A stretch of DNA of 38,152 nt from a virus. Of the stretch, positions 16,043 to 37,318 are shown one piece after another. Where the stretch lies: UHGV virus genome UHGV-1370838. One strand, written 5' to 3'. A model generated the notes under the pieces. The model was not told where the DNA came from and made no database searches. It saw only the letters and a program-made list of their open reading frames with translations. Positions within the stretch are counted from its first letter, which is position 1. Each line of letters opens with the position of its first letter. A program made the position numbers and the translations under genes.

Positions 16043-16079
16043 TTGACATTTAACGCGTGAATTATTACCTTTCAGGTAA
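16043..16079 (+). promoter_or_regulatory. -35-like TTGACA (16043-16048) followed by operator palindrome TTACCTTTCAGGTAA (16065-16079)
   Basis: Read directly; palindrome identical to the copy at 37304-37318. Confidence 0.45.
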
Positions 16080-16401
16080 CTAAAGAGCTCATTCTGGTTA
16101 CTAACCTGACTGGCTTGTCGTTAAATTAAACAGGTGGAGTGAGCTTTTATTTTGAGCAGTACGGCGTATGGCACATGCGCCGATAGCGGTCTGGATACGT
16201 TTAAGGGGCACCCTCCCTTGCTCGGGCAAACGAACCAGGTAGCCGGAATGTGCAAGTCGAGCGGTTTTATTCCGCGCACGGGGATTCACCATCCCGGCGA
16301 TTCGGTGTGACGCCTCGGAAGAGACGAGGGTACAACGATGAGAGCATTTATGGAGCCGCGACAAAGTGTGGCGCCTTAACAGGCTAAGTGCTCTCAGCGT
16401 T

Positions 16402-16478
16402 GTGGCATTAGCTCAGTCGGACAGAGCAACCGCCTTCTAAGCGGTTGGTCGCAGGTTCGAATCCTGCATGCCACGCCA
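16402..16478 (+). tRNA. tRNA-Arg (anticodon UCU)
   Basis: Cloverleaf folded by hand: acceptor GTGGCAT/ATGCCAC, D-stem GCTC/GAGC, anticodon stem ACCGC/GCGGT with loop CTTCTAA, T-stem GCAGG/CCTGC with TTCGAAT loop, discriminator G, encoded CCA. Confidence 0.9.
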
Positions 16479-16521
16479 GAATCACGCCTAAGGACCGTGA
16501 TGCCAGAAGTTCCAGGGGCTT

Positions 16522-16564
16522 GGCGGTGATGGTTTCCCTTGAAGGACTATCACCGCCCTTTTTA
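16522..16564 (+). terminator. intrinsic terminator downstream of tRNA
   Basis: GGCGGTGAT / ATCACCGCC stem with structured loop, followed by CTTTTT. Confidence 0.6.
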
Positions 16565-16641
16565 CAGCAGGACGCCATTGCGATGACTTCATGCTGTAAA
16601 CCCGTACAGCCACGGAAGGCATAACTCATTGCTTCCAGTTC

Positions 16642-16665
16642 GCCCGGTTCGCCGGGCATTTTTTT
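16642..16665 (+). terminator. hairpin GCCCGG-TTCG-CCGGGC plus T7 run, 11 nt upstream of next ATG
   Basis: Perfect 6-bp stem with TTCG tetraloop and ATTTTTTT. Confidence 0.65.
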
Positions 16666-16676
16666 AAGGTGAGATT

Positions 16677-17048
16677 ATGAACGACAAGCAAATCGAAAAA
16701 GAAATCGTTGAGAAAGGCAAAACGGCACCGCGCGTTACGCCAGACCATATCGAAGGAATTATTGCTCAGGAGGCATATTTCACAGCAGAAGATGGTGCCT
16801 TTGGCAAAGCCATAAAAGCGAAACATACTGGCGGAGAGGTAAACTACCAGCCGCACGAATCACTTTCTCTGCTGACGTTCTGCGTCCTGGTGCTGCGCAA
16901 CGGCTTCACCGTCACCGGAGAGAGCGCCTGTGCAAGCCCGGAAAACTTTGATGCAGAAATTGGTCGGAAGATTGCCCGGCAGAATGCTGTAAACAAAATC
17001 TGGATGCTCGAAGGTTACTTGCTGAAGCAGAAGCTAAGCGAGCAATAA
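16677..17048 (+). CDS. hypothetical phage protein (possibly gp49/gp66-like family)
   Basis: 123-aa ORF on opposite strand to flanking operon; AAGGTGAG SD; family assignment from memory only. Confidence 0.55.
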   Translation: MNDKQIEKEIVEKGKTAPRVTPDHIEGIIAQEAYFTAEDGAFGKAIKAKHTGGEVNYQPHESLSLLTFCVLVLRNGFTVTGESACASPENFDAEIGRKIARQNAVNKIWMLEGYLLKQKLSEQ

Positions 17049-17052
17049 CACC

Positions 17053-17064
17053 GTGACATGTCAC
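17053..17064. repeat. perfect 12-bp palindrome GTGACATGTCAC (copy 1 of 3)
   Basis: Read directly; 5 bp after stop of 16677-17048. Confidence 0.8.
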
Positions 17065-17068
17065 AAAC

Positions 17069-17097
17069 AGCCAGCCGATGAGCTGGCTTTGTTTTAT
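17069..17097 (+). terminator. intrinsic terminator
   Basis: AGCCAGC / GCTGGCT stem followed by TTTGTTTTAT. Confidence 0.6.
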
Positions 17098-17138
17098 CCT
17101 CATCAGAGGATATCAACGACATTATCCCCACCAGCGGA

Positions 17139-18614
17139 TTAAGCATAGGGATCGTAATCTGTGATGGCCTTGCCTTGCTGGTTCTGCTGCCCGGGAATTC
17201 GCAGACGCTTCGACACAGGGAACGCAAACGTCAGCAGTAGCGCATCGCCTTTACCAGGCGAACGCCCAAGCCGCTCCTTGATATCTTCCTTCGGTTCGAT
17301 AACGATTTTACCGTCCACTCGAACTTTGTACTCTGCCGCCGACAGATCGTCCGCTGTTTCCTGGTCATCCAGCATCCCGCCCAGCCTCAGCCATGTCTTG
17401 CATGAGTTGAACATCTCCCCACGCTTGTTGAGCATCTGCTGGTCAGTAGACGCGCCACCGAACGGAACAAGTTGCCATGTGCGCCCCCAACCGTCACCGA
17501 TTGACTTCAGACCGGTACCGTAACCAAAGTCGATGAACACTGCGTCAGCCTGATACAGGTCTTCAAAGTCAGCGATACGCTTCGCCATAATCAGATCGTC
17601 GGTAGTCTTGTTGCCAGTCCACAGCACCTTACTGTGTAGCCCCTGCCGCAGGTATATCACCGCGTCATCAACGCCTGAATATGCCGGGTCAACACCGATT
17701 ATCACCGGAGCATGCGCCACCTGCGCAGCGGTTACCACCCGTTTCATTGCCTCATCAGTAAGACCGGTAGGGATAAACTGCAATTCAGATGCATCAGGGA
17801 ATATGCCGCGCACACGGATTTTAACGAAGTCGCTGTCTTCCCCGTAGTCATCAACCCATTTCTGCAACTGCTGTTTGTTAGTGCCTTCCACCGTCCGGCT
17901 GTCAATCTGCGCAGTTTTCCAGCGGTGTTTATATTTGCGGAAACATTCACGGAATCGCCCGGTATTACGCGTCGGGTTTCCGAACGCCACCCAGATAATC
18001 TCAGTGTCTTCGTCCGTTAGCGCACCTTCGGCAACTTCCCACACCAGATCCGCAATGTTCGACGCTTCATCGAATACCACGATGATGCGTTTGCGCTCGT
18101 TGTGTAGTCCGGCGAATGCCTCAGTGTTGTGCTCAGACCAGGGGATTGCGTCAGCTCGCCACCGCTTGTCGTGCCCAGGATCATTGCTGTACATCGCGGT
18201 AGCGGTACAGGTAAACCAGTCTTTCGTGATAGCAAGGTTCGACCACTTGATAATTTCCGGCCAGGTCTTCGTTCGTAGCTGGTTGTCGGTGTTGGCGGTC
18301 ACCACGACCTTACAATCCTCGCAAGTGGACATGCCCCAGTTGATCAGCATTGAGATGAATGCGGATTTACCAATACCGTGACCAGAAGCGCGTGCCAGCA
18401 TAAGCGGCTGATAGCGCGTCTCTGGATTCTGCAGGTGATCACGTATCTCTCGGAACGCATCAGCCTGCCACTGACGTGGGCCGGTGGCATGTGCCAGTTC
18501 AGTCCCCTCTTCCCCCCACGGGAACGCATAGAGGGCATAGCCAAGCGGATCGTGAGTGAACCCTGCAATATCCTCGATCAACTGCTCTTCAGGAGATAAC
18601 GCTGTATCTGTCAC
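17139..18614 (-). CDS. terL: terminase large subunit
   Basis: 491-aa ORF with Walker A-like GHGIGKS; GTG start overlapping terS stop. Confidence 0.9.
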   Translation of the reverse strand: MTDTALSPEEQLIEDIAGFTHDPLGYALYAFPWGEEGTELAHATGPRQWQADAFREIRDHLQNPETRYQPLMLARASGHGIGKSAFISMLINWGMSTCEDCKVVVTANTDNQLRTKTWPEIIKWSNLAITKDWFTCTATAMYSNDPGHDKRWRADAIPWSEHNTEAFAGLHNERKRIIVVFDEASNIADLVWEVAEGALTDEDTEIIWVAFGNPTRNTGRFRECFRKYKHRWKTAQIDSRTVEGTNKQQLQKWVDDYGEDSDFVKIRVRGIFPDASELQFIPTGLTDEAMKRVVTAAQVAHAPVIIGVDPAYSGVDDAVIYLRQGLHSKVLWTGNKTTDDLIMAKRIADFEDLYQADAVFIDFGYGTGLKSIGDGWGRTWQLVPFGGASTDQQMLNKRGEMFNSCKTWLRLGGMLDDQETADDLSAAEYKVRVDGKIVIEPKEDIKERLGRSPGKGDALLLTFAFPVSKRLRIPGQQNQQGKAITDYDPYA

Positions 18615-19207
18615 TGATTACCATCCTGACGTTCTTTGAGTCGCTTCCTGGCTGCCGCTATGCGATCAGCAATTGTCACATTCACATTAACATCCAGGCG
18701 TTCTTTGAACGCGTTGACGTCGACGTGCTTACCAATCAGTTCGAGGTTCTTCACCTTGTCAGGCCATTTAATTTTTTTGAGGATTGTCTCTATCGAATCC
18801 TCGTTCATGTTCATGATGGTCGATGACAGATCAAAGCCACTAAGCGTAGTGCGCCAGATTTTCGGCCACTCGCGGATTGGCTTAAGGCTCCCATCGTCGT
18901 TGAGGATGTCGATCACGTCCATCTGGTCGATCTCCACCAGGCGCATGAGAACGTAATCAGCACTGACGCGCATTCGTTTGTTGCGCTCCTCCATCAACTC
19001 GGCAATCCGTTTTTGAATGCGTTCATCGCGCATCATGACACTGGCTTTAACTGCCGCTGTATTTGGGGAGAATCCTGCGTTAATCGCTGCCTGAGTCTGG
19101 TTTTCAGGCGTTTTGATGTATGACTGGCAATAAGCCTCCTGCATTGCTGTTAGTGGCTTAAATTGCGTTGATTTGCGTTTATAGGTTTTAGGTTCAGCAG
19201 GCATCAT
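18611..19207 (-). CDS. terS: terminase small subunit
   Basis: Start moved to the ATG ATG pair at 19202-19207; the longer ORF prefix is low-complexity Thr/Ile/Val translated from DNA repeats. Confidence 0.7.
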   Translation of the reverse strand: MMPAEPKTYKRKSTQFKPLTAMQEAYCQSYIKTPENQTQAAINAGFSPNTAAVKASVMMRDERIQKRIAELMEERNKRMRVSADYVLMRLVEIDQMDVIDILNDDGSLKPIREWPKIWRTTLSGFDLSSTIMNMNEDSIETILKKIKWPDKVKNLELIGKHVDVNAFKERLDVNVNVTIADRIAAARKRLKERQDGNQ

Positions 19208-19214
19208 AACCACC

Positions 19215-19246
19215 GTGGTAATAGTTACCGTTGTGGTAATAGTACC
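19215..19246. repeat. tandem GTGGTAATAGT(T)ACC repeats in terS leader
   Basis: Two copies at 19215-19229 and 19233-19246; GGTAA and TTACC half-sites in everted orientation. Confidence 0.5.
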
Positions 19247-19316
19247 ATGCAAAATAAAGCCGCCATAGTTGGCGGCAGTATTCAAAACCATCAAATTCAT
19301 CATGCATAATCTACTC

Positions 19317-19328
19317 GTGACATGTCAC
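19317..19328. repeat. perfect 12-bp palindrome GTGACATGTCAC (copy 2 of 3)
   Basis: Overlaps stop codon of 19325-19672, 14 bp upstream of the longest terS ORF. Confidence 0.8.
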
Positions 19329-19672
19329 ACTATTAATTTCGTTTCATGCCAGCCTTTAGTCACCCAGCATTGTGAGTCACCATTACACGGACATGAATTA
19401 ACTGGAACTCTCTCGCCGCACTTACCGCAAAGTTTTCTGCTGATCGATTTTATACGCCCGCGCACACGTGCATCATCCTGGCGGATCAGCAGCGCGATGT
19501 ACTCGGCCATTTCATAGGGATCGCGACCAGGGCGCCGGGCGGCGCAGTTCCGCGCCAGCATTTCCTGCTCCTGCTTATCCAGCACCAGTTCAATTTTGCG
19601 CTCACCGGCGGCGGACTGCCGAGCGCGCTGCGCGGCTTTGCGTTCTGCGGGGGATTTAGCCACGAATCGCAC
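19325..19672 (-). CDS. putative DNA-binding regulator (ribbon-helix-helix-like N-terminus, Cys-rich C-terminus)
   Basis: 115-aa ORF, GTG start; strand-helix-helix pattern KIELVLD...EMLARNCAARR...PYEMAEYIALL and CGKCG...CPC motif; immediately upstream of terminase genes. Confidence 0.45.
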   Translation of the reverse strand: MRFVAKSPAERKAAQRARQSAAGERKIELVLDKQEQEMLARNCAARRPGRDPYEMAEYIALLIRQDDARVRGRIKSISRKLCGKCGERVPVNSCPCNGDSQCWVTKGWHETKLIV

Positions 19673-19778
19673 TCCACGCCAGATTGATTAATGACTCCCA
19701 GGCAATATAAACCCGGATACCAGCAGCCAGGCCGAAACCAATCACCATGGCATAAAGCAGAGCGTTGCACTTGTTCAT
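19656..19778 (-). CDS. 40-aa single-pass membrane peptide
   Basis: ATG at 19776-19778 preceded by AGGAGGTGAAGTA; TAATG overlap with upstream stop; hydrophobic core. Confidence 0.45.
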   Translation of the reverse strand: MNKCNALLYAMVIGFGLAAGIRVYIAWESLINLAWSAIRG

Positions 19779-20320
19779 TACTTCACCTCCTGCGGCGGTT
19801 CCGGTAGCGGCATCCAGTGTGACGGTTTCCACGACGCACCAGGAATTATCCACCCATCATTAGCGTCAGGATGCCCCGGGATGTAAGTCGCCCATTTCAT
19901 TCGCCAGTCACCTTTCCTGTCAAACTCCACGGCAACAAGAACGGCTGTTTTGGTATTCGGCATTCGCTCACTACAGCTTATCCAACCATCCGGAGTTACC
20001 GGAGAGTTGCCATTTATATCGAAGTTTGGCTCTGCGTCCTGAACCAGGAGGATGTAACCATTCTTGGCAGTATCAAGTTCTAACGCCTCGGTGACGGTAC
20101 CGAAATAGCGATTACCTAAATCAGCATCACAAGTGCTTACATCAATGGAAACTTCCATCCCTTCGATTAATTCTGGCAAGTTGTAAGTTTGGCTTACAGG
20201 CTCTGCTTCCAGTGATGCCAGTGCAATTCGTGCCAGTTCCATTTGTTCGCCACGAGTAAGTCCGTTATCAAGCGGATTTTTAATGAATAATTCGATACGT
20301 TCTTTGGTTATAGCGCTCAT
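19778..20320 (-). CDS. DUF551-like protein
   Basis: C-terminal HWMPLPEPP motif typical of DUF551 as I recall it; ATG with AAAGGAGAG SD. Confidence 0.65.
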   Translation of the reverse strand: MSAITKERIELFIKNPLDNGLTRGEQMELARIALASLEAEPVSQTYNLPELIEGMEVSIDVSTCDADLGNRYFGTVTEALELDTAKNGYILLVQDAEPNFDINGNSPVTPDGWISCSERMPNTKTAVLVAVEFDRKGDWRMKWATYIPGHPDANDGWIIPGASWKPSHWMPLPEPPQEVK

Positions 20321-20321
20321 A

Positions 20322-20942
20322 TCACTCTCCTTTGATGCGAATGCCAGCGACGCGTGGCACATTAACTTCCACGATGCGCACAGTTGGTTTGTACATCTCA
20401 ATCGCTGTCAGCCAGTCAGCGCCAGTCATGCGCTTTTCTGCATCGCCATTAGTCCACTTAACCGGTACACCAATAGCCTTCATCGCGATTTCTATTTCCC
20501 CGGCAATGGCGCTTTTTCCGCAACCAGTAAAACCAGAAACAACGACAAGAACTTCGCCTTTGGCTGGTTTTATTTCCCGCGCTTCCAGTTCTGCTATGCG
20601 CTTCTCTGATGCTTCAAGTAACGCCTGCTTATCGCGTAGCGCTTCTTCCAGTTCAGCAACATGGCACTCACTATCAATAAGGTTGTTCTCTGCGGCTTCC
20701 AGCTCAACACGCAGCTTCCCTACCGTTAGCGCAATATCCTCGTTCTCCTGGTCGCGGGATTTGATGTATTGCTGGTTTCTTTCCCGTTCATCCAACAATA
20801 CCAGCGCGATATCTGGCGAAAAGTGCTTCATAAAATCGTTAAGCGCATTAATTCGCTGATCGAAAGGCATTACAGGTGCTTCACCAGCAATTTTTGTTTT
20901 TTCAGCGATTTCACGAAGCTTTTGATAATCAATCTTGCTCAC
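20322..20942 (-). CDS. Ead/Ea22-like protein with C-terminal P-loop motif
   Basis: Coiled-coil N-half; GFTGCGKS Walker A-like motif near C-terminus; GTG start overlapping upstream stop. Confidence 0.6.
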   Translation of the reverse strand: MSKIDYQKLREIAEKTKIAGEAPVMPFDQRINALNDFMKHFSPDIALVLLDERERNQQYIKSRDQENEDIALTVGKLRVELEAAENNLIDSECHVAELEEALRDKQALLEASEKRIAELEAREIKPAKGEVLVVVSGFTGCGKSAIAGEIEIAMKAIGVPVKWTNGDAEKRMTGADWLTAIEMYKPTVRIVEVNVPRVAGIRIKGE

Positions 20943-21694
20943 TGGTTGCCTCCTTTGCGAAGCTGGGCAGCAAAGTCAACTAACCACTCAGTCATTTCAA
21001 CCTTCCCTACCAAGTCTGAACCAGGGTGCATACAGCAATCACTCTGCGCCGCTTTGAAATCCTTATACTCATATTCTTGGGCCACCAGATTTTTTGCAGC
21101 TTCTATAGCAGCATCCACCCCCTGCGCCCGGACTTCAGCCAGGAAAGCGTCGGTGGCTGGGGTTTCGATATTAGGCAGAAGCGCATAATCGCAAATCGTA
21201 TCGATCGCAGGATCACAACAGTCATCCTCGTTGCGTGGTCGTTCGCCAACCTTCGTTGACGATTGCATGATGATTCCCCAGCAAATACTATCGACCTCTT
21301 CGCTCCATCCATCGCAAGCATCACCGCGATAGTCGTCGATTGCAGCCTCAGCCGATTCGATAGCTTCCTCAGCAGTTTTGTGCCATTCGAAATTATGCTC
21401 AGAGCCATATGAGAAATATGAATGTCCCGCCTTCAGCCCCGCATTCTCCGCCGCCAGCGCCGAAAACTTCTCGTGTGCCAACTTAACAGCCGAATCAGCC
21501 TGCTTAATTGACTCAATCGCTCTCTGGTGGTCTTCGGCCAGCGCATTAGCACGCACCAGTTGCACTTCCAGTTGCGTTGCCAAATCGCTGATCAGCTTTG
21601 CCACACTGCGCATATCAACGGCACCACATTCTGCTTTCAGTTCCGAAGCCATCTCATGCCCGGCGGCAACTAACCCTTTGATATTACTTTCCAT
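20939..21694 (-). CDS. Ead/Ea22-like Cys-rich protein
   Basis: 251-aa ORF; GAGGG SD; several CC/CxxC clusters. Confidence 0.55.
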   Translation of the reverse strand: MESNIKGLVAAGHEMASELKAECGAVDMRSVAKLISDLATQLEVQLVRANALAEDHQRAIESIKQADSAVKLAHEKFSALAAENAGLKAGHSYFSYGSEHNFEWHKTAEEAIESAEAAIDDYRGDACDGWSEEVDSICWGIIMQSSTKVGERPRNEDDCCDPAIDTICDYALLPNIETPATDAFLAEVRAQGVDAAIEAAKNLVAQEYEYKDFKAAQSDCCMHPGSDLVGKVEMTEWLVDFAAQLRKGGNQ

Positions 21695-21755
21695 CTTTAC
21701 CCTCGCTTATCCACATAACTTATTGATTACATTGATAACTAAAAAGATCGTCGAT

Positions 21756-22100
21756 TCAGAACTCTTCGATGTTCCAGCCACCACCTGCTTTCTTTGGCTT
21801 AACCGTTACCCCGATGATTCGGAACGGATACTGATCTGCGGCGACTTTGGTTTTCACCCTGGCGTCGTCGGTCCAGAAACCTTTCACTTCGTGCAGTTCC
21901 ATCTCGCCGGTGGCGAGCATCACAGCAAAATCGGGCGTATAGAACGTGTTGTCAGCTAACCGCAACTTGATACCCTCGAATCGATACCAGGCGATTTCCC
22001 CTGCACGTTTACGCTGCTCAAGGTGCTGGCAATACGCAGATTCTGTTTTGTTCATCTGGCCTGTTTTGAGTCGACCAAGAGCCTGTATCTGTTTTCTCAT
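21756..22100 (-). CDS. PD-(D/E)xK nuclease-like protein (DUF1064-like, putative resolvase)
   Basis: 114 aa; PDFAV...ELHEVKG motif; first gene after an operator pair. Confidence 0.55.
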   Translation of the reverse strand: MRKQIQALGRLKTGQMNKTESAYCQHLEQRKRAGEIAWYRFEGIKLRLADNTFYTPDFAVMLATGEMELHEVKGFWTDDARVKTKVAADQYPFRIIGVTVKPKKAGGGWNIEEF

Positions 22101-22103
22101 GAT

Positions 22104-22180
22104 TTACCTCTAAGGTAATTAGAAACCACATAAGACACGAAATCAATAGATTTTAGAATGTTTTGTTACCTGATAGGTAA
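22104..22180. promoter_or_regulatory. two operator palindromes TTACCTCTAAGGTAA (22104-22118) and TTACCTGATAGGTAA (22166-22180)
   Basis: Perfect TTACC-N5-GGTAA copies, centres 62 bp apart, between P-like stop and DUF1064 start. Confidence 0.6.
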
Positions 22181-22217
22181 TTATTGAGACGTAAAAAAAT
22201 GCGCTATCGCGCTGGTA

Positions 22218-23018: not shown

Positions 23019-23815
23019 GCTTCAGGGCTGTTCCAGTGCGGAACGTTGTTATCAGGTAATGTTGATTGCTTCTGTCTGCTAATCTGCAGCCGCCTTGCCA
23101 GCTTCTGCTCCCACTGTGCCTGATGGTATGCCTTACCCTCAGCCATCCAGTAAATTCTGAACTCTGCAAGTTCCTGTGCCGTTGGCAGACTGTCCAGGTA
23201 GATCCCCTGCAATGAGCTTTTCCGAAGAAAGTCATCTGATGGCTGCCATTGTTCATGCATGACAAATTTGCCTAATTGCCCTGGCCCACCAGGAGGAACA
23301 AAGTTATTCATCACGGCGTTGTTTGCGCCGGGGTCATTAGGCACAGAATCCCCGCTTTTTGTCCTGCTCTCCCTCTCTTGGTTAAATGACTGGTTATATG
23401 ACTGGTTCTGGATCCCGTTTTTGGGATCATTCAACATCCCGTTTTTGGGATCATTCAACATCCCGTTTTTGGGTATATTCCCGTTTTCGGTAACATTACC
23501 GTTTTCGGGTTCATTACCCCCTTCTCGGTTGCCTTTAATGTTCCCGTTTTTGGTTATATTAAGAGAGAAAACCCGCACTCTTTTCGTCGCTCCCTTTCTC
23601 TCTCCGGTATCTGAAATAAGCCCCATTTTCATGAGCGATATAAGTCCGGCCTGCACGGTTTTTTTATTCAGGCAAGTGTCTTTAACGAGGCGTTCTATGC
23701 TGGGGTAGCAGAGGTTATATTCATCGGCTCTGTCAGCCATCGAGAGCAGTATGAGCTTTAATGATGAGCTACCTGGATCTGTCTCCCAGGCCCAATCTGT
23801 TGCATGTCTGCTCAT
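23000..23815 (-). CDS. replication initiator O-like protein
   Basis: N-terminal HTH-like domain; central NGN/KNG peptide repeats encoded by the DNA iterons; GGAG SD. Confidence 0.75.
   Translation of the reverse strand: MSRHATDWAWETDPGSSSLKLILLSMADRADEYNLCYPSIERLVKDTCLNKKTVQAGLISLMKMGLISDTGERKGATKRVRVFSLNITKNGNIKGNREGGNEPENGNVTENGNIPKNGMLNDPKNGMLNDPKNGIQNQSYNQSFNQERESRTKSGDSVPNDPGANNAVMNNFVPPGGPGQLGKFVMHEQWQPSDDFLRKSSLQGIYLDSLPTAQELAEFRIYWMAEGKAYHQAQWEQKLARRLQISRQKQSTLPDNNVPHWNSPEAWEDFL
23412..23560. repeat. replication origin iterons inside O-like gene
   Basis: ATCCCGTTTTTGGGATCATTCAAC twice in tandem, then degenerate copies (CCCGTTTTTGGGTAT, CCGTTTTCGGTAAC, CCGTTTTCGGGTTC, CCCGTTTTTGGTTAT); each has TCCC...GGGA dyad symmetry. 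Confidence 0.75.
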
Positions 23816-23830
23816 GATTAATCTCCGCTA

Positions 23831-24031
23831 TCAGCTTGAGTGTTGTGGGGAGGAATTAATCATGATCTGCTTAATCTCTGCCCTGATGCGACGGTTTGAT
23901 TCCATGGTGCACTCAACACAGTGTCCGTTGTAAACCCAGCGTTCACTGTCATGTCCGTGCTTACATGGTTTTCCGGTGTAGTAGCGTTTAAGTCCGCGCT
24001 TTGCGGCATCAATACGTGTAATGATTTCCAT
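23831..24031 (-). CDS. small zinc-finger-like protein at cII position
   Basis: ATG at 24029-24031; CKHGH...CVEC motif; between cro-like and O-like genes. Confidence 0.45.
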   Translation of the reverse strand: MEIITRIDAAKRGLKRYYTGKPCKHGHDSERWVYNGHCVECTMESNRRIRAEIKQIMINSSPQHSS

Positions 24032-24111
24032 GGTAAGCCCTGTTATTAGTATTGGGATTACGGTTATTTTGTGCTGACACAAAAAAAAGATCAACCATAT
24101 TTGGTTTTTTA

Positions 24112-24126
24112 TTACCTTTGAGGTAC
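24112..24126. promoter_or_regulatory. operator-like palindrome TTACCTTTGAGGTAC (1 mismatch)
   Basis: Read directly, upstream of Zn-finger/O/P genes. Confidence 0.45.
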
Positions 24127-24131
24127 GAATA

Positions 24132-24181: not shown

Positions 24182-24412
24182 TCATGAGTAGAAGAAGTAT
24201 GCCAGTTCTGCTTTTGAGCGCAGCCATTGTCTTGATTTACAGGCTTTAAAAAGCCCATCCATCAATACCTTACCTGGCATTTTGCGCTTACCTGTTAAGT
24301 GAGTCTGGATATAGTGACTCGTCGTTCCGGCTTCCTGTGCGAAGGCTTCACGCTCATCCGGAGTAAGTGCAAGCCAGTGCTTTTTGAAATCGAAATGTCC
24401 GTTATCGCTCAT
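24182..24412 (-). CDS. Cro-like HTH regulator
   Basis: 76 aa; HTH segment TSHYIQTHLTGKRKMP; divergent from CI-like gene across operator cluster. Confidence 0.7.
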   Translation of the reverse strand: MSDNGHFDFKKHWLALTPDEREAFAQEAGTTSHYIQTHLTGKRKMPGKVLMDGLFKACKSRQWLRSKAELAYFFYS

Positions 24413-24437: not shown

Positions 24438-24511
24438 ATAATAAATATTCACCCATAAGGTAACAAAAATCAAGGATAGTTACCTATGGGGTGCATTTAC
24501 CTGTTGGGTAA
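24438..24511. promoter_or_regulatory. tripartite operator region between cro-like and CI-like genes
   Basis: Three operator copies at 24449-24463 (TCACCCATAAGGTAA), 24480-24494 (TTACCTATGGGGTGC), 24497-24511 (TTACCTGTTGGGTAA); minus-strand -10 TATTAT at 24438-24443 with -35 TTGTTA 17 bp upstream. Confidence 0.65.
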
Positions 24512-24566: not shown

Positions 24567-25151
24567 ATGAAAAGTATCCAGGACGTCCGCAGGCAAAATC
24601 TCAACGACTTGATCGACCGTGAATTCAATGGTGTTCAGACGCGGATGGCAGAAAAACTTGGAACTCAGGCAAATCTGGTAAACCGCTGGGCTCTTGGCAA
24701 GAAGGTTATCGGCGACCAGGTTGCGCGAAAAATTGAAGCTGCCGCCAATAAACCCCGTAACTGGCTTGATATCGATCGCTCGCTTTCTCAGGAAGGTTTT
24801 CAGCCTGTCGGCCCAAGCGACATTGGTCAGCTGGCAGCTCACAACCTGGAACGCTGGATGAGTGAAAGCCGCGACCTTTCAACTCAGGGAAAACTTCACC
24901 GCGCATCCGGCGTCGCCCAGGTGACAATAAGCCGCCTGTTAAACAATGAGGTCAGCGTTTCCATTTCCACCCTGGAGAATGTTGCATCTGCATTCGGGCG
25001 TCACGGATATGAACTACTGATTCATCCGCATGACCCTGCGACCATCAACTATGATCGCTCGCGCTACGCATTGTTACCCGAAACCGAGAAAGCAAAGATC
25101 GAAAGTTACATTGAATTTGTCATCAACCAGAACGAAAAAAACAAACAATAA
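24567..25151 (+). CDS. CI-like prophage repressor with two HTH domains and no peptidase domain
   Basis: 194 aa; two XRE-type HTH segments (residues about 25-45 and 110-135); no Ser/Lys autopeptidase motif seen. Confidence 0.7.
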   Translation: MKSIQDVRRQNLNDLIDREFNGVQTRMAEKLGTQANLVNRWALGKKVIGDQVARKIEAAANKPRNWLDIDRSLSQEGFQPVGPSDIGQLAAHNLERWMSESRDLSTQGKLHRASGVAQVTISRLLNNEVSVSISTLENVASAFGRHGYELLIHPHDPATINYDRSRYALLPETEKAKIESYIEFVINQNEKNKQ

Positions 25152-25171: not shown

Positions 25172-25196
25172 AAGCCGCCTTATGGCGGCTTTTTTA
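25172..25196 (+). terminator. intrinsic terminator after CI-like gene
   Basis: AAGCCGCC-TTAT-GGCGGCTT followed by TTTTTATT. Confidence 0.7.
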
Positions 25197-25208: not shown

Positions 25209-25285
25209 TTACCTAACGGGTAATTTTTTTAACTCATATCTATTGACATCAAACCATATACGCATAATTATTACCTCAACGGTAA
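25209..25285 (+). promoter_or_regulatory. early-left promoter region with two operators
   Basis: TTACCTAACGGGTAA (25209-25223), -35 TTGACA (25243-25248), TTACCTCAACGGTAA (25271-25285) over the -10/+1 region; operator centres 62 bp apart. Confidence 0.6.
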
Positions 25286-29521: not shown

Positions 29522-29523
29522 AA

Positions 29524-30780: not shown

Positions 30781-30822
30781 AATTCACCCGTATAGAAACC
30801 ATTTTCATGACGGTATGAGAGT

Positions 30823-30837
30823 ATACCTTTAAGGTAA
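30823..30837. promoter_or_regulatory. operator-like palindrome ATACCTTTAAGGTAA (1 mismatch) upstream of int
   Basis: 43 bp upstream of int start; nested inside inverted repeat GACGGTAT...ATACCGTC. Confidence 0.45.
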
Positions 30838-30892
30838 TACCGTCACCTGTACCGCAGAAAAATATGGTGTAGAGTGAATAGAAATGAATACA

Positions 30893-30926
30893 TAAAAACA
30901 AAAACCCTCTGTAAAAACAGAGGGTT
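30893..30926 (-). terminator. intrinsic terminator ending the lysis operon
   Basis: AACCCTCTG-TAAAAA-CAGAGGGTT perfect 9-bp stem; minus-strand T-run TTTGTTTTT. Confidence 0.75.
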
Positions 30927-30979
30927 AAATTAGTATCTGAATAGGAATGAGTTGCTATGAGTTAGCTGTTAATCATTCC

Positions 30980-31016
30980 CACTCAATTATTTACGGACAC
31001 CATAACCAATTGAGTG
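30980..31016. repeat. 9-bp inverted repeat CACTCAATT / AATTGAGTG with 19-bp spacer (attP-region candidate)
   Basis: Read directly, in the noncoding stretch between int and lysis genes. Confidence 0.3.
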
Positions 31017-31097
31017 ATAACATTTTTCCAAAGATGAATTTTTCCCGTACCGTTTTATATACCGTCACCGGAAATCAGTACCATGAAAAATGCCATG

Positions 31098-31580
31098 CTA
31101 TCTGGTCAGGGTGTCGTACTGTTTTTCGCAGACTCTTCCGGCTTCGGCTGCCCGGTCAGCATACTCTGCCAGTTGTCTGTTTCTCTCGAGAGATTTGCTG
31201 AGCACGTCGGCAAGCAAAACTCCGGTATCTGCGGCTGACGACCCAGCGCCGACAATGGCGTTATAGTGCCTGAGCTGCTCACGGATGGCAACGAGCTGTT
31301 GCTGCAACCGGCCAGCGCGAGCGGCAGCATCAAGAGCATCATTGCGCGCCTGGTCGATCCTCTGCTGCGCTTCACGTTCATTGATCGATTTCTCCTGTTC
31401 GTAGTGCTGACGAACTCTCTCATCTTCGGTTTTGCGGTCTTCTTTCGCCTGTGCATACCCGGCGTCGTACTGACGACTGCCGTGCACATTCCAGGCAACA
31501 ACTCCTGATATGACCAGAACAGCAAGCACCGCCATGATAATCAACTGATTACGGTATGCTTTTACGAATGCCCAGATCAT
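31098..31580 (-). CDS. i-spanin (Rz-like)
   Basis: N-terminal TM segment then Gln/Arg/Ala-rich coiled coil; last gene of lysis cassette. Confidence 0.65.
31106..31381 (-). CDS. o-spanin (Rz1-like lipoprotein) nested in +1 frame
   Basis: Signal peptide with lipobox LAGC; Pro-rich mature part; start uncertain (31381 or 31342). Confidence 0.5.
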   Translation of the reverse strand: MNVKRSRGSTRRAMMLLMLPLALAGCSNSSLPSVSSSGTITPLSALGRQPQIPEFCLPTCSANLSRETDNWQSMLTGQPKPEESAKNSTTP

Positions 31581-32206
31581 ACGGCCAGCACCTTACTGGC
31601 AGTAACGTACCGCGCGCGCCGGTCGTCGATGCCGTTCCGGCCACCATTGATAATCAGAGTTACACGTGCAATATCTCCGGGATACTTCATGCAGCCTTTG
31701 CTGGAGAAGAACCACGCCGCGCTACGAGCCGCGTATTCGTCCTGCGTCAACAGCTCAGGATTCTCCAGCAGGTCCACTTTTAGACCGTTTCCGCAGTCAC
31801 GATAGTTATTCAAACCGGTAATCTGGATAAGCCCGCGCCCACGGTAAAACCAGCCGTCAGTCGGCCCGTTGTTCCCCATGCGCTTGCTATACACCAGATT
31901 GGCGATCGCACGCTGGCGCTCCAGCGGTAACGATGGCTCACCAGCACGACGGCCCAGCGCGTTGGCCTGGCCCTGAGTGAGGCGCCCGGCACGGACGAAT
32001 CCCGCCAGCCCAGTCACGCTGTAGTTGAAGTTCTCCTGCAGCCGGGTGAAGCCTCCAGACTCATGCCCGACCTGAGCAATAAACATTGCCTGATCTTCTG
32101 GTTTGCTGATACCAAACTCTTTCATCGCAGAAGTTATATGCGAGAACCAGCGTGCGGCCAGCGCCTCGCTAATACCAGCAGCTCGCTGGAATTGTTTAAT
32201 CTCCAT
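31577..32206 (-). CDS. endolysin, glycoside hydrolase family 19-like
   Basis: [16 protein letters not shown]-type GH19 motif; GAGG SD. Confidence 0.8.
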
Positions 32207-32504
32207 GTTTAGACCTCGTTATTTTGAAAATCTGAACGACGTTACCGCGAGTTTTAAGAACCGCAGCAAGCATGACAGCGTTGATAATGACCTCAGATAA
32301 ATCCACAGCCATTGGCGTGCGTAACCAGATTGCATAGACGACACGAACAGGAATACTGGCCGCAGCAACAATAAGGAAATAAGCAAGCCACCCTCCCCAC
32401 CTTCGATGTTGTGAACCGTTACGCCGGAATGTGACAACACGAATTGCTATGCCAGTACAAATAAGTGCATTGGTGATAAGCAAAACAAGCTCATTAGTTA
32501 CCAT
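32196..32504 (-). CDS. holin/antiholin-like membrane protein
   Basis: 102 aa with about 3 TM segments; between holin and endolysin. Confidence 0.55.
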
Positions 32505-32895
32505 CGCCTTTTCTCCCCGGAATTAACTCGCGTGGATTATCGGAACGGTGATAGAGCCAGATGCCAATTCGAACTGCAACGATTGCTGACACGAATGCAC
32601 CAGCAGAGAAAACAATCCCTTTCTCGAAAGAGTCCTGCGTGATGGTAGGGATCAGGCTGGCTATGCCGATAAGAATTGATGCTGCTGGTTTATAGAAAAG
32701 AAGTCCGCAGAGAAAGCTAAGCATCGATAAGAGTACGCGACGATGAATTGGGTACTCTACCGCAGAGGTAACAAAAATTACCGCACCAGCAAGAGCACCT
32801 AAAGCCACCTCAGGCGGTATACCAACGAACACGGACGCCAGTGCAGTCAGGCTTAACCCCTGATTTACTGACTCTGTTGTCAGCACATGCGCCAT
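32494..32895 (-). CDS. holin-like membrane protein
   Basis: ATG at 32893-32895 with GGTGG SD; multiple TM segments; first gene of lysis cassette. Confidence 0.6.
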   Translation of the reverse strand: MAHVLTTESVNQGLSLTALASVFVGIPPEVALGALAGAVIFVTSAVEYPIHRRVLLSMLSFLCGLLFYKPAASILIGIASLIPTITQDSFEKGIVFSAGAFVSAIVAVRIGIWLYHRSDNPRELIPGRKGDGN

Positions 32896-33000
32896 AGTGA
32901 CCACCGTTTATTGTGCATAAAGAACCCCCTTAGTTGGTGAGTTCATCATACACAATAAACCATATGTGGATTAATTTTGATCGGATAACTCTTAACGAAA

Positions 33001-33015
33001 TTACCCTAAAGGTGA
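33001..33015. promoter_or_regulatory. operator-like palindrome TTACCCTAAAGGTGA (1 mismatch)
   Basis: In divergent region between holin and acetyltransferase. Confidence 0.4.
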
Positions 33016-33051
33016 TATCATTAACGCATCTTACTCAAAACGATAGCGATT

Positions 33052-34911
33052 ATGTCTTCTTTAAAATACAGAACTGATATAGGCGGACTCAGGGCTATTG
33101 CTGTCATGGCAGTTGTCCTTTATCACTTCGGAGTCAAAGGGTTTTCTGGTGGGTTTTCAGGAGTAGATATATTCTTTGTTATATCAGGGTATCTGATGAC
33201 TGGAATAATTTACACAAAGATAGAAAATGAAAACTTTTCACTGTTAGGATTTTATCTTGATAGGGCAAGAAGGATTATACCTGCTTTAACTGTAGTTTCA
33301 GTTGCTGTTCTGATAGTTGGTTACTTCATTCTTTTACCTTCTGAATATGAATACCTGGCTCAACACGTAAGAAGTAGCCTTTTATTTTTCTCAAACGTTG
33401 AGTATTACCATAGCATTGATTATTTTGATACTGCATCAAAGCAGAAATGGCTTCTTCATACATGGTCGCTTTCTGTAGAGTGGCAGTTTTACATGGTATA
33501 TCCAATCATAATGATGGTAATTGCAAAGCTATTGGGCGCTAAGCATATAAGGTATGTTGTTGCCATCCTTGCAATTATATCATTTACTGCCTCAGTGTAT
33601 CTTTCTTATAATAATCAGGGGGCTGCATTTTATCTTCTGTCAAGCAGAGCTTGGGAGATGCTGGCTGGCGGCCTTGCCTACCTTCTTCCTACTATACAAA
33701 ATTCAAAACGCACTGCTGTATTTAGATGGATTGCCATAGCCTTTGCAGTATCGGGGATAGTCTTGCTTAACAGCTTAATGAAGTGGCCTGGGTATCTTGC
33801 CTTAATACCAGTCGTTTCTACTTTCTTTGTCATTTATCTTGGATGTAAAGATAACCTGTTACTTGATAATGCATTATCTCAATGGGTTGGGAAAATTTCA
33901 TACTCGGTATATCTGGTTCACTGGCCCATAGTTGTCTATATGTCAATGAATAAGATGGATGATATGGTTTATACAGTATCAGGTGTTGCCTTATCAATTC
34001 TTATTGGTGCCGCATCATTTTATTTAATTGAAAACCCTTCAAGAAAGGCACTTTCAAAATTTAAAAACGGCAGGTCCTTGAATGAATTAACTTTAATCGT
34101 GCTACCTGTAGGTGGTGTAGTTGGTTTGTGCTTCGCTGTACTATTGCTATCTGGAATTCCATCAAGGTTTTCGTTTGTCACAATGACGTCCGAACAGCTA
34201 AAAGAACAAATGAACAGGTATTGGGTTGATGGAGACAAGCCTCACCCTGTACCGAAGACAGGTGACAAAAAAATAGTAATAATCGGTAATTCTCATGGCA
34301 TAGATCTGACTTATGCACTTACTGAAAATGGGATGAAGGGTGATATAACTTATATAAGAACTACAAACTTATGTTCAAACTTTGGTTATACACCAAACGA
34401 CATGCCCTATGTAGAAAAGTGCAAAAAAATATTCAATGACGTGATCTCATCTCCAGCCATAGCTGAAGCTAACATTATAATCCTTCATGATGATTATGGC
34501 GTTGGCGATCTGTTCGGGATGCTTTACTCTATAGGCAAAATACAGGAGAGGACTAAAGGAGAAGTTATTGTATTTGGGCCTAAGATGAAGTTTACGGCAC
34601 AGCCAATGGAAATAATTAAGTCTGCTTTTAAATCTGGCGTAAACACAGTTGATGGGATAAATAAATACTCTAAAAAGTATTATGACAATAGTAGAGTTGA
34701 AATTAACAATACGATAAAAGGCTATCTTGGTAGCAACCAGCATTCGTATAAATACATAGATACGCTTGCCGAGCAGTGCGGAAAGTCAATGAATTGTGAC
34801 ATCCTTTCTACTAAAGGTGATTATCTTTACTTTGACAATAGTCATTTCACTCTAGAAGGCTCAAGGGAGTTTGGGAAAAAATTAAAAAATGACAAGCCAT
34901 TTATTTTTTAA
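33052..34911 (+). CDS. O-antigen acetyltransferase (acyltransferase-3 membrane domain fused to SGNH-like domain, OafA/Oac-type)
   Basis: 619 aa; N-terminal GGLRAIAV...LYHF motif and about 10 TM segments; C-terminal soluble domain with GNSH; visibly AT-rich versus flanks. Confidence 0.85.
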   Translation: MSSLKYRTDIGGLRAIAVMAVVLYHFGVKGFSGGFSGVDIFFVISGYLMTGIIYTKIENENFSLLGFYLDRARRIIPALTVVSVAVLIVGYFILLPSEYEYLAQHVRSSLLFFSNVEYYHSIDYFDTASKQKWLLHTWSLSVEWQFYMVYPIIMMVIAKLLGAKHIRYVVAILAIISFTASVYLSYNNQGAAFYLLSSRAWEMLAGGLAYLLPTIQNSKRTAVFRWIAIAFAVSGIVLLNSLMKWPGYLALIPVVSTFFVIYLGCKDNLLLDNALSQWVGKISYSVYLVHWPIVVYMSMNKMDDMVYTVSGVALSILIGAASFYLIENPSRKALSKFKNGRSLNELTLIVLPVGGVVGLCFAVLLLSGIPSRFSFVTMTSEQLKEQMNRYWVDGDKPHPVPKTGDKKIVIIGNSHGIDLTYALTENGMKGDITYIRTTNLCSNFGYTPNDMPYVEKCKKIFNDVISSPAIAEANIIILHDDYGVGDLFGMLYSIGKIQERTKGEVIVFGPKMKFTAQPMEIIKSAFKSGVNTVDGINKYSKKYYDNSRVEINNTIKGYLGSNQHSYKYIDTLAEQCGKSMNCDILSTKGDYLYFDNSHFTLEGSREFGKKLKNDKPFIF

Positions 34912-34919
34912 TTGATGAT

Positions 34920-34936
34920 GGGGAGCATTGCTCCCC
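34920..34936. other. hairpin GGGGAGC-ATT-GCTCCCC between convergent genes
   Basis: Perfect 7-bp stem; no U-tract on either strand. Confidence 0.4.
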
Positions 34937-34946
34937 ACGCATAACA

Positions 34947-37199
34947 TCAACCTATTTTAGTGTAAGTCCAGTTAAATGTTGCCGCGCCCTGACTTGTTAC
35001 CGCTACATTCCTTCCCGATGAAGAAAATGTTATGAATGCTCCGGCTTTTAATGGCGTTAGAGTTAATGAGCCATCATACATCGCTAGTTGTGTAGAAGAG
35101 TAGTTTGTGCCGCCGCCAGAACCCCATACACTAATGAGATACATCCCCTGCATATCAGGCAATGCAAACAATGTTGTTTCGGTGTTGGCATTTACGGATT
35201 GTGTTCCTTTTGCGGTGTAGAAACCAGGTGTCTGTAGCCCCGTTGATGATACTTGTTGAGTGTAACCGCCAGAAACAGTACCAGATATCGGGGTGCAGAA
35301 CCAGTTAACGTTACCCTGACTAACTACTGATAAAACCGGGGAGCCGCCTGCAGGCGCGCGCCAACGACCGCTGTACACGTCAATTCGGGATGTTGTGTCC
35401 TTAGCGTATAACGTAATAGGGTATCCACCAGTCCCGGAGTAAGGGATTGCGCTATCAGACAAGTCATCCTCAGAAGAATCGATTATAACCTGACTTGTCC
35501 CGGATGCCTTTATGAAAGAAACGACACCACTTGCCGCCGGGGCTACAGTTTTTAACTGATTTTGCCCTGCTGTGAGCCCGGATATTTTGCCATTAGTATT
35601 CTCAAAATGGAAAAGAGTTGCATCCCCACTACCATCTGTGGAAATTATATTTCCTTCCGCATCAAATCCCACAATGTTAACGCTGTGTGAGTTAATGAAA
35701 TGGACACCTGCTCCGCCGAATGAACCACCAGAAAGTGTAATGCTTGATTGGTCCATAGCGCAGTTGAGCATAGTTACAGACATAACGGCGCCAAATTGAT
35801 AAGGCGAGACGCATCCGGATGCGTAGCAAGTCTCCATCAAAATGGTCGTACCAAGCGCCTTAATAAAGCCGTCGTGGCAATTCCGCGCCCATACGTTTTG
35901 CAACTTAGTAAGGTAAGTTCCGGTGGCGTCGTAGAAACAGCGCCATGCACCATGTACTGTGCAGTTTTTAATCTCAGACATTTCAAGACCAGTAGTACCG
36001 GCTTCAGTGGAATAGAAATTAAATGCTATCTTCCCACCATCATCTTCAGGATTCGTTGGTGTGGTTCCTGGATCATAGAAAATATAAAGACCATCAATAA
36101 AAATCTGAATCATTTTTGTCGATAGGGAATCACCTTGATCTAAAGCAAAGGCTGATATATTCCCAACAATTGACATGAAAGACTGAGAACGGTTTATTGC
36201 ATCAGTCCCTTCACCAACAATTCTGACTGAATTATTAAATATAATTGTGGCATTATAATATCCAAGACCTTTTGGGATTAGCACCTTTTTACCAGTATTA
36301 CATGCGGCCTGCAGCGCCGCATAATCCAACGATTGCGTGAGAGACGTAACAAATGGATATACCATCTGAGCAGCTGATAGTGTTGAAAATATCTCGCTTA
36401 AAGGGTGAAGCGTTCCGTCAATTGTCGCTCCAAAATCAACAACACTAATGGCTTGTGCATTTTTTATATGCTGCGAAAGAGAAATTGCCCCCTGGTAAGG
36501 CTGCTTCACTGTTATCAGCGCATCACCTTTCCCGTCAGCGCTGCTGGCCAACTGGTTGAATACGTCCGCCGCCGTTCCTGAAGGCACAGGGAAAGGAACA
36601 GGCTTCCCGTTTTGAATGCCGATAATGCTGCCTTCAAGCTGAGCGAGTGGTGGCAGCGGATCGATATAAGCGTCAGGAACTCGGATGGTATGGTTGATGT
36701 TCGATAAAGCCGTGCTGTCCACATAATTCTTTGTGGCTGCATCCTGCGGGTTAACCGGGTCTTTCAGGTTCCGAATATAGTTGTTCAGCGCGTTATAATA
36801 ATTTGCTACGAATGACGGCTTGCGCAGCGCCAAGCTAAACCAACTTCGAACCTGCTGGATCAGCATCGTTAGCTTATCAAAAGCATCCTCATGCACTTCT
36901 GCAAAGAACTTACCCTGATTACGCAAATCAGTTTCCTGCGTAACCGGGAGGTCTCGTGATATAGAAATCTGATAACCGTTAGCTAACGCCTTCGACAGAA
37001 TTACATTACCGCCATTATATCCACCAGCCCCAGTGACAGTGTAATCAGTATCAAGAGCCAGCACAGCGATATTTTCGTCAAGGTCAACCACCTGTACTAC
37101 CAGATCAGATTCCTTGAAAACCCTAAAGGTATACGGAAATGATGTCGTAACGCCGTTACCTGTGTATTCGTTGTGGTCAACTTCGGTTGAGACCGTCAT
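34947..37199 (-). CDS. tailspike / tail fibre protein
   Basis: 750 aa; N-terminal particle-binding-type domain; Gly/Ser/Thr-rich beta-helix-like body; GGAG SD. Confidence 0.8.
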   Translation of the reverse strand: MTVSTEVDHNEYTGNGVTTSFPYTFRVFKESDLVVQVVDLDENIAVLALDTDYTVTGAGGYNGGNVILSKALANGYQISISRDLPVTQETDLRNQGKFFAEVHEDAFDKLTMLIQQVRSWFSLALRKPSFVANYYNALNNYIRNLKDPVNPQDAATKNYVDSTALSNINHTIRVPDAYIDPLPPLAQLEGSIIGIQNGKPVPFPVPSGTAADVFNQLASSADGKGDALITVKQPYQGAISLSQHIKNAQAISVVDFGATIDGTLHPLSEIFSTLSAAQMVYPFVTSLTQSLDYAALQAACNTGKKVLIPKGLGYYNATIIFNNSVRIVGEGTDAINRSQSFMSIVGNISAFALDQGDSLSTKMIQIFIDGLYIFYDPGTTPTNPEDDGGKIAFNFYSTEAGTTGLEMSEIKNCTVHGAWRCFYDATGTYLTKLQNVWARNCHDGFIKALGTTILMETCYASGCVSPYQFGAVMSVTMLNCAMDQSSITLSGGSFGGAGVHFINSHSVNIVGFDAEGNIISTDGSGDATLFHFENTNGKISGLTAGQNQLKTVAPAASGVVSFIKASGTSQVIIDSSEDDLSDSAIPYSGTGGYPITLYAKDTTSRIDVYSGRWRAPAGGSPVLSVVSQGNVNWFCTPISGTVSGGYTQQVSSTGLQTPGFYTAKGTQSVNANTETTLFALPDMQGMYLISVWGSGGGTNYSSTQLAMYDGSLTLTPLKAGAFITFSSSGRNVAVTSQGAATFNWTYTKIG

Positions 37200-37303
37200 G
37201 TTAAATCTCCAGATAGTCGCAGCACCCGTTGCGCCGCATATCTGGTTATTCTATTACCTGAAAAACCATATATGGATAGAAAGGCTGTAAATACGAATAG
37301 ATA

Positions 37304-37318
37304 TTACCTTTCAGGTAA
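37304..37318. promoter_or_regulatory. operator palindrome TTACCTTTCAGGTAA
   Basis: Perfect copy between tailspike start and the LexA-box gene. Confidence 0.55.

Follow-up and report, generated by a model that had tools for sequence, protein, structure and literature searches.

The window analysed here is the whole 38,152-nucleotide stretch of the virus genome UHGV-1370838, which is assigned to a phiV10-like Uetakevirus (an ε15-like podovirus) and whose immunity and structural regions are 97–98% identical to those of the Escherichia phages PAS61, phiv142-3, phiV10 and ZX5. A two-fold symmetric palindrome, TTACC-N5-GGTAA, recurs in the window as about 14 sites over 9 regions at operon boundaries. 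Sequence comparison indicates that these palindromes are very probably operators of the phage repressor Rep and that they form a genus-wide regulon. The fuller explanation, in which Rep would occlude a set of promoters, add a local lock at the late operons and be released by the antirepressor Ant, has in our estimate a probability of about three in four.

The palindrome and its sites

The window holds 8 exact matches to TTACC-N5-GGTAA, where 100 shuffles gave 0.00 and 300 Markov simulations gave 0.017, and a further 6 copies with one core mismatch (0.65 expected from Markov simulation). The stricter form TTACCT-N3-AGGTAA gives 17 matches at up to two mismatches, with 0.81 expected. The repeated palindrome is thereby confirmed as real and not a product of chance. 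Its symmetrised profile reads A-TTACC-N5-GGTAA-T, with a W-rich N5 whose centre is nearly always A/T. About 93% of the window is coding, and all 8 perfect copies fall in the remaining ~7% of non-coding sequence once the start of TerS is corrected as described below; before the correction, 7 of the 8 were intergenic. The 16-kb structural operon (26–15974) is free of sites with zero or one mismatch. A first-pass annotation of this DNA had listed 12 copies of the motif, 7 of them as perfect and all of them as intergenic. Every one of the 12 coordinates is correct and the 7 are perfect in the core, but only 16065, 22104, 22166 and 37304 are perfect for TTACCT-N3-AGGTAA, and a tandem pair at 19225/19207 had been overlooked. 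The intergenic placement holds for the perfect copies, the sole one-mismatch copy inside true coding sequence being 32757. The control scans suggested at that time bear the motif out, with no exact match in shuffles, perfect copies restricted to non-coding sequence and no sites in the lytic relative AF. The 62-bp centre-to-centre spacing that the same annotation had seen in two pairs recurs in the relatives.

The same classes of site occur in synteny in phiV10, ε15, SPC32H, Tyrion and BUCT711, the genomes compared with the window (six including the window). Conserved in the genus are three sites at OR, pairs 62 bp apart at OL/PL (63 bp in BUCT711) and at nin, a tandem pair at TerS, and single sites between cro and p42, at portal/tRNA, at ant/tailspike, at lysis and at int. 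Between genomes, the half-sites and the A/T centre stay constant whereas flanking bases and the N5 spacer differ, which is the pattern expected from selection on a protein-binding site. The GenBank record of ε15 (AY150271.2) carries ‘protein_bind: repressor’ features at seven places, with the sequence ATTACC-N5-GGTAAT: upstream of TerS, upstream of gp3/portal, in the gap between gp19 and the tailspike gene, three at OL and one at a nin junction. All seven have positional equivalents in the window; the feature at ε15 12–27 corresponds to the TerS site and that at 19895–19911 to 37304, and a perfect copy at ε15 24704 corresponds to window position 33001. The phiV10 RefSeq record contains no repressor-binding features. 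As the ε15 record already labels the equivalent sites, the distributed layout had been predicted before for the type phage; it is not new but a largely known feature, and the Rep–Ant switch has already been studied in SPC32H. The ε15 entries are predictions rather than mapped sites, and they do not include the second nin site or the copies at OR, lysis and int.

Starting from the immunity region, OR consists of site A (24497–24511), on the rep side and with a perfect core; site B, TTACCTATGGGGTGC (24480–24494), 17 bp from site A, with two core mismatches and counterparts that are perfect in ε15, SPC32H and BUCT711; and site C, TCACCCATAAGGTAA (24449–24463). Downstream of rep, the distal operator of PL (25209–25223) comes directly after the rep terminator (25172–25191), followed by the proximal operator at 25271–25285. 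At Pnin, the distal operator (22166–22180) follows the P-like replication gene, and the right half of the proximal operator (22104–22118) doubles as the GAGG ribosome-binding site of the DUF1064 gene. A single site with one mismatch (24112–24126) lies between the terminator of the cro-like gene (24160–24141) and the p42/replication genes.

At the late operons, the TerS tandem pair (19207–19239) comprises a perfect site at 19225 and a one-mismatch site at 19207, 18 bp apart. Read as in the phiV10 RefSeq record, the long TerS open reading frame (ORF; window 18611–19303, L001 41–715) is extended at its 5′ end by a stretch with an intrinsic terminator (19276–19259), the two sites and ATGATG, in this order. 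The TerS proteins of ε15, SPC32H and Tyrion begin at a conserved MPAEPK, whose equivalent in the window is the ATG at ~19204, downstream of the terminator, so that the pair is non-coding. The portal/tRNA-Arg divergent region has one site at 16065–16079, 16 nt downstream of a TTGACA (16043–16048, + strand). Another, at 37304–37318, separates the tailspike gene (34947–37199, − strand) from ant. The site at 33001–33015, with one core mismatch, lies between the lysis cassette (starting at 32904, − strand) and the acyltransferase gene (33052, + strand). A doubtful site upstream of int (30823–30837) has the identical single mismatch in all genomes and is located within an attP arm. The attP core, ATTGAGTGGGAATGATT, is found at 30971–30987, ~150 bp from 30823, and three copies of ATACCGTCA(CC), at 30808–30816 (inverted), 30837–30847 and 31059–31069, look like integrase arm-type sites; the first two, in inverted orientation, enclose 30823.

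Rep as the candidate binding protein

The rep gene (24567–25151, + strand) encodes a 194-residue protein that matches SPC32H Rep (PDB 5D50_A) over its full length, with residues 1–190 aligned to 2–197 by phmmer (E 4e-42). Pfam assigns it an HTH_3 match at 106–147 and a weak HTH match at 21–61, and finds only HTH families and no S24 peptidase domain. Identity to the Rep proteins of SPC32H (~42%) and ε15 (42%) is modest, and Reps across the genus are ~43% identical, yet the helix NLVNRW is invariant among them. This invariant helix parallels the invariant half-site, and we infer that it is the recognition helix of Rep. The accessible part of the published work on SPC32H describes Rep as a tetramer on palindromic DNA whose DNA-binding domains are drawn from different dimers. 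According to the same part, the domains are ordered as DNA-binding domain, MDD (dimerisation) and TetDloop, a fold linked to DNA looping; the C terminus also binds Ant, a tetrameric antirepressor that dismantles the Rep tetramer, and the mechanism of repression is described there as little characterised. The first-pass annotation had read the protein as a dual-HTH repressor; by this domain order, the second ‘HTH’ (HTH_3, 106–147) is the dimerisation domain. In ZX5, whose repressor is 100% identical to that of the window, overexpression of the repressor lowered holin and endolysin mRNA by 99.97–99.99%.

The operator of ε15 is the same as that of the window although the two Reps are only 42% identical, where a different operator had been expected. 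With the same operator and an invariant helix, a covariation test within the genus is uninformative, and we therefore turned to two outgroup phages chosen for a Rep-type N-terminal domain, Pseudomonas PseuP_224 (L008 11010–11747) and Psychrobacter pOW20-A (L014 8905–9603). In these two unrelated phages, the domain is 38–39% identical to that of the window Rep (E 3e-12 and 2e-10). PseuP_224 contains TTACC-N4-GGTAA in three perfect copies and one near copy, all flanking cI, and pOW20-A contains TACCT-N3-AGGTA in four perfect copies and one near copy, all flanking the CI gene; a Q-like antiterminator is annotated in both. Of the other regulators tested, the Cro-like protein, p55, Ant and p42 all lack a homologue in PseuP_224, and pOW20-A has a Cro-like homologue besides the Rep-type domain. 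Neither of two phages without Rep has the sites: AF, a lytic structural relative, and the p55-carrying Pantoea AH07. The half-site thus goes with the Rep DNA-binding domain, and the confinement of the outgroup sites to the surroundings of cI makes the genome-wide spread specific to Uetakeviruses. The motif also resembles the MqsA palindrome (ACCT-N3-AGGT), a resemblance that we do not use as evidence.

As read from their sequences, the outgroup CI proteins fuse the Rep-type N-terminal domain to a C terminus resembling the self-cleaving S24 domain of LexA and λ CI. This arrangement points to an exchange of the induction module behind an operator-reading domain that has been conserved, the module being S24-like in the outgroups and of the dimerisation plus TetDloop/Ant-binding type in Uetakeviruses. 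Beside the tailspike gene, the window encodes an Ant homologue (37381–37653, + strand) that is 87% identical to SPC32H Ant (E 4e-56). Its promoter contains a consensus LexA box, CTGTATAAATATACAG, at 37358–37373, between the −35 and −10 elements; the stretch TACTGTATAAATATACAGT at 37356–37374 is flanked by TTGCTA and TATTGC. The sequence hallmarks of an SPC32H-type Rep/Ant switch are hence found in the window: a full-length Rep homologue, no S24 domain, an ant homologue and a LexA box at the ant promoter. Together with the literature, they suggest an induction route from LexA through Ant to Rep disassembly. DNA damage would lift LexA off the ant promoter, with no cleavage of the repressor, and Ant would take Rep tetramers apart and so free all operators at once. 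BUCT711 (L004 ~363–440) has an extra gene between p55 and TerS, with a consensus LexA box, TACTGTTTAAATATACAGTA, in promoter-like sequence upstream; this may be a second SOS-controlled gene.

Promoters, late operons and alternative readings

Two sigma-70 promoters, PL (TTGACA-17-AATTAT; −35 at 25243–25248, −10 at 25266–25271) and Pnin (TTGATT-17-TCTAAT; −35 at 22146–22141, −10 at 22123–22118), are each bracketed by sites 62 bp apart. In both, the last base of the −10 element is the first T of the proximal site, so that this site covers the start point; the centre of the distal site is near −62, and six genomes keep this geometry. At PR, OR site C overlaps the −35 element (TTGTTA, 24466–24461) and the spacer. 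The TTGACA at 16043–16048 faces the tRNA-Arg gene and not the portal gene; its −10 region coincides with the Rep site, and the distance of 16 nt between hexamer and site is the same in six genomes (TTGACC in BUCT711). From these overlaps, classical promoter occlusion at PL, Pnin, PR and the tRNA promoter is well supported.

In a lysogen, Rep would occlude PR (on the −35), PL and Pnin (from the −10 through the start point) and the tRNA-Arg promoter. With two pairs of DNA-binding domains in a tetramer, its sites would tend to come in twos, as adjacent pairs 17–18 bp apart (OR-A/B and TerS) or as the 62-bp pairs around PL and Pnin, which span about six helical turns and could form a small repression loop. 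A second, local lock, either a roadblock behind terminators or an upstream anchor, would probably be added where sites head the TerS, replication, portal, tailspike, lysis and perhaps int units. One protein would thereby silence the whole genome. Binding, looping and an effect at the late operons are what we infer for Rep from the arrangement of sites. The timing of late expression probably needs other factors; candidates, described below, are the element CCATATATGGTT and the p55 protein together with the sites GTGACATGTCAC.

Several observations weigh against this explanation as a uniform account of all sites. The TerS and p42 sites stand directly behind terminators with no recognisable promoter, and a conserved block reaching the start codon begins 40 bp from the site at portal, 28 bp at tailspike and 31 bp at lysis, with the site upstream in each case. 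Promoter predictions and manual reading revealed no convincing sigma-70 promoter overlapping the late-operon sites; near the TerS terminator, a weak promoter-like GTGACA-18-CATGAT (9/12) overlaps the p55 palindrome and is not conserved in ε15. The O-antigen acyltransferase gene, which is expected to be on in lysogens, has the site at 33001 in the spacer of its predicted promoter. Flanked by inverted ATACCGTCA copies in the attP arm, at a position where the ε15 record annotates integrase-binding and RNase III sites, 30823 may be a different element (an integrase or RNA element) rather than a Rep operator. Finally, the Cro-like protein is no less conserved and could share the sites with Rep. That one repressor directly gates every operon, as first proposed, is accordingly overstated, since sites overlap promoter elements only at PL, Pnin, PR and the tRNA promoter, and not at TerS, p42, portal, tailspike or lysis; the broader proposal, of a repressor operator common to the immunity region and to the heads of replication, nin/terminase, portal, tailspike, lysis and int, agrees with the sequence evidence.

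Two further palindromes share these boundaries. The second palindrome, CCATAT(A/G)TGGTT (CCATATATGGTT), is present at four loci at up to one mismatch, with 7 strand hits against 0.37 expected: 16013–16024 at portal, 37264–37275 (− strand) 28 bp downstream of the tailspike-side Rep site, 32958–32969 at lysis and 24093–24104 at p42. Weaker copies lie in the spacers of Pnin (22124–22135) and PL (25252–25263). Its distance from the Rep site, on the downstream side, is 7 bp at p42 and 28–40 bp at the heads of the portal, tailspike and lysis operons; the conserved block in front of the late genes begins with this palindrome and extends as far as the start codon. Its positions are conserved in the six genomes, and it is absent in AH07, AF and PseuP_224. 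As binders of this element, p55 and a PerC-like protein are disfavoured, AH07 having homologues of both and no motif, and the Cro-like protein is unsupported, the immunity region of pOW20-A being without the motif.

The third palindrome, the perfect 12-bp GTGACATGTCAC, has three copies where 0.002 would be expected, all at operon ends and adjacent to intrinsic terminators: at 17053–17064, next to the terminator 17069–17088 at the convergent p03/TerL junction; at 19317–19328, where it contains the stop codon of p55; and at 37678–37689, abutting the terminator 37677–37660 at the end of the structural operon. The p55 gene (phrog_536; 19325–19672, − strand), the last of the early-right operon, encodes a small candidate regulator with a basic N terminus and a Cys-rich C terminus. 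Four phages with unrelated backbones (Pantoea AH07, Klebsiella NAR688, a P2-like phage of Yersinia and a phage of Vibrio) have GTGAC-N2-GTCAC across the stop codon of their p55 homologue. In two other Vibrio phages it lies within ~300 bp downstream of the homologue; Vibrio K308 has a copy just upstream of TerS, and the 5-kb region examined in one Aeromonas phage has none. Copies outside the window are at L007 22826, L010 3288, L012 3324, L016 2758 and L011 3499 and 6214. From this association, GTGACATGTCAC is probably the cognate site of the p55 family. A literature search for the GTGACATGTCAC string returned no matches. No relative of p55 was found in Pfam, NCBIfam or the PDB; its AlphaFold model has a predicted local distance difference test score (pLDDT) of 64, and the best Foldseek hits, to ribbon-helix-helix antitoxins, reach only E ~4. 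A role as a Q-like antiterminator is not established for p55, which shows no likeness to Q or N and whose AH07 homologue adjoins xis/int. Among the candidate regulators and most early genes, Pfam, PHROGs and NCBIfam identify no Q or N antiterminator, in line with what the first-pass annotation had seen.

The arrangement of these elements suggests an alternative for the late genes, in which they are expressed mainly by read-through from PR and Pnin, p55 acts at the terminator-side GTGAC-N2-GTCAC sites as an antiterminator or termination modulator, and the outer Rep sites serve as roadblocks or anchors. The gene map, compiled from the ORF list of the window and the phiV10 annotation, is compatible with such read-through: the cro-like, replication, nin-like, p55, TerS/TerL, portal to tail, tailspike, lysis and int genes are on the minus strand, with rep, the early-left operon, tRNA-Arg/p03, the acyltransferase gene and ant on the plus strand, and the minus-strand early-right and late genes are broken up only by opposite-strand morons. 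A terminator is followed by a Rep site at TerS, p42, PL, Pnin and int, and the same alternative would account for the three GTGACATGTCAC copies adjoining terminators, for the palindrome over the stop codons of p55 homologues in the AH07, Yersinia, NAR688 and Vibrio phages and for the K308 copy before TerS. Against these stand a p55 that resembles neither Q, N nor any solved structure and is modelled at low pLDDT, the location of its AH07 homologue beside xis/int in a phage that has its own annotated antiterminator, and a TerL-end palindrome that late transcription would reach only past the hairpin. We regard read-through as a possible but tentative account.

A bolder version is that Uetakeviruses have swapped the lambda Q cascade for a ‘three-palindrome grammar’, with Rep operators at operon heads, (AA)CCATATATGG(TT) at late heads and p55-bound GTGAC-N2-GTCAC by terminators. 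We consider this doubtful. Were it true, p55 would represent an undescribed and widespread family of phage regulators (phrog_536), controlling termination or read-through into the late genes, and the genes of the family would end inside their own binding site.

Rep and/or the Cro-like protein acting as the sole regulator, with a gated promoter for each operon, no antitermination or activator and the stoperator logic of mycobacteriophage L5, is unlikely. This scheme would explain the lack of a Q or N family match, the sites at every operon head and the absence of distributed sites from relatives with a Q-like antiterminator. It leaves aside that the late sites are off recognisable sigma-70 promoters, that a single repressor gives no early/late timing after infection and that the defining features of L5 stoperators are not found here. 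The ‘single-repressor network’ of the first-pass annotation also runs into the two additional conserved palindrome families at the same boundaries and the conserved candidate regulator p55, which make a strictly single-regulator circuit unlikely.

Less probable again is that, outside OR/OL, the motif is mainly a target of the Cro-like protein, which would damp early and middle promoters in lytic growth, with Rep acting only in the immunity region. The Cro-like small HTH protein (p41/ε15 gp39; 24182–24412, − strand) is the first gene product from PR and belongs to phrog_35 (‘transcriptional repressor’). Its HTH is invariant in the genus, the helix AGTTSHYIQ-HLT being the same in five genomes; pOW20-A has both a Cro-like homologue and the TACCT-N3-AGGTA operators, and in lambdoid phages Cro and CI share operators. 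PseuP_224, however, combines the half-sites and the Rep-type domain with no Cro-like homologue, the ε15 annotation gives the sites to the repressor, and overexpression of Rep alone abolishes lysis-gene transcripts. That the copies outside the immunity region are junctions of modular recombination with no regulatory role, suggested by their location at module boundaries where the gene content of relatives differs, is very improbable, since only the 5-bp half-sites and the A/T centre are kept while flanks and spacer drift, which fits protein binding and not a linker, and since the 62-bp and 17–18-bp pair spacings are kept.

Neighbouring features and relation to known systems

Next to the portal/tRNA site, the tRNA-Arg(UCU) gene (16402–16478, + strand) overlaps an ORF at 16408–16659 (− strand), the counterpart of phiV10 p04; given the overlap, this ORF is probably spurious. 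The acyltransferase encoded beside the lysis cassette (33052–34911) has 619 residues, like the O-antigen acetylases of SPC32H and Tyrion; as Oac of phiV10 has 338 residues, the conversion module of the window is unlike that of phiV10. Within the DnaT-like replication gene, 23379–23518 contains tandem repeats of 24 bp (2.6 copies, 100% matches), 18 bp (3.1 copies) and 12 bp (2.4 copies), which, by analogy with lambda O, look like replication-origin iterons embedded in the initiator gene.

The closest known layouts are those of the genus itself. ε15 shares the motif with the window at the syntenic places that its record labels. SPC32H, whose Rep–Ant switch is represented by the PDB entries 5D50 and 5D4Z, shares the full-length Rep homologue, the closely related Ant, the LexA box at the ant promoter and operators at the same positions; its Rep is only ~42% identical, and the accessible part of the published work deals with tetramer assembly and Ant, not with genome-wide operators.

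The first-pass annotation had likened the layout to the stoperators of L5. The sites of L5 gp71 are 13-bp, asymmetric and monomer-bound, number more than 20, lie in many cases in short gaps within operons and work in one orientation only. As in L5, one repressor would act at many genome-wide sites, late regions included, to silence the whole prophage; unlike those of L5, the window sites are symmetric and have no orientation, none lies within the 16-kb structural operon, and the binder is a tetramer according to the part of the SPC32H literature cited above. The analogy thus fails on asymmetry, monomeric binding, the orientation rule and intra-operon sites, and holds only in the sense of one repressor with many sites. 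It is nevertheless possible that the Rep sites at TerS and p42, behind terminators and with no visible promoter, stop elongating RNA polymerase.

PseuP_224 and pOW20-A, which are of the lambda type, resemble the window in their divergent rep/cro genes, three OR sites, an OL/PL unit downstream of the repressor gene, a homologous N-terminal domain and TACC/GGTA half-sites. They differ in an S24-like C terminus, in the restriction of their operators to the surroundings of cI and in the annotation of a Q-like antiterminator, whereas the window has a C terminus for tetramerisation and Ant binding, genome-wide operators and no recognisable Q or N. Because the Q-bearing relatives keep their operators around cI only, the distributed layout is a real departure from the lambda plan. 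Outside phages, Rco of the Bacillus plasmid pLS20 likewise has an N-terminal DNA-binding domain with a TetDloop, a protein antagonist and a proposed cooperative binding across a loop; it is a regulator of plasmid conjugation with a different host and different operators, and the looping of Rep at the 62-bp pairs is our proposal.

Annotation of the genus would gain from the corrected start of TerS and from the list of operators. Derivatives of phiV10 and SPC32H serve as reporter and detection phages, for which the operator map shows where Rep control is to be removed or kept. The more original leads may be the association of p55 with its palindrome at terminators and the second late-operon motif. 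For the biology of the Uetakeviruses, the window provides a compact case of a temperate phage with the operators of one repressor spread beyond the immunity region to nearly all transcription units, and the contrast with relatives that confine them to cI and carry a Q-like antiterminator makes this evolutionary transition testable.

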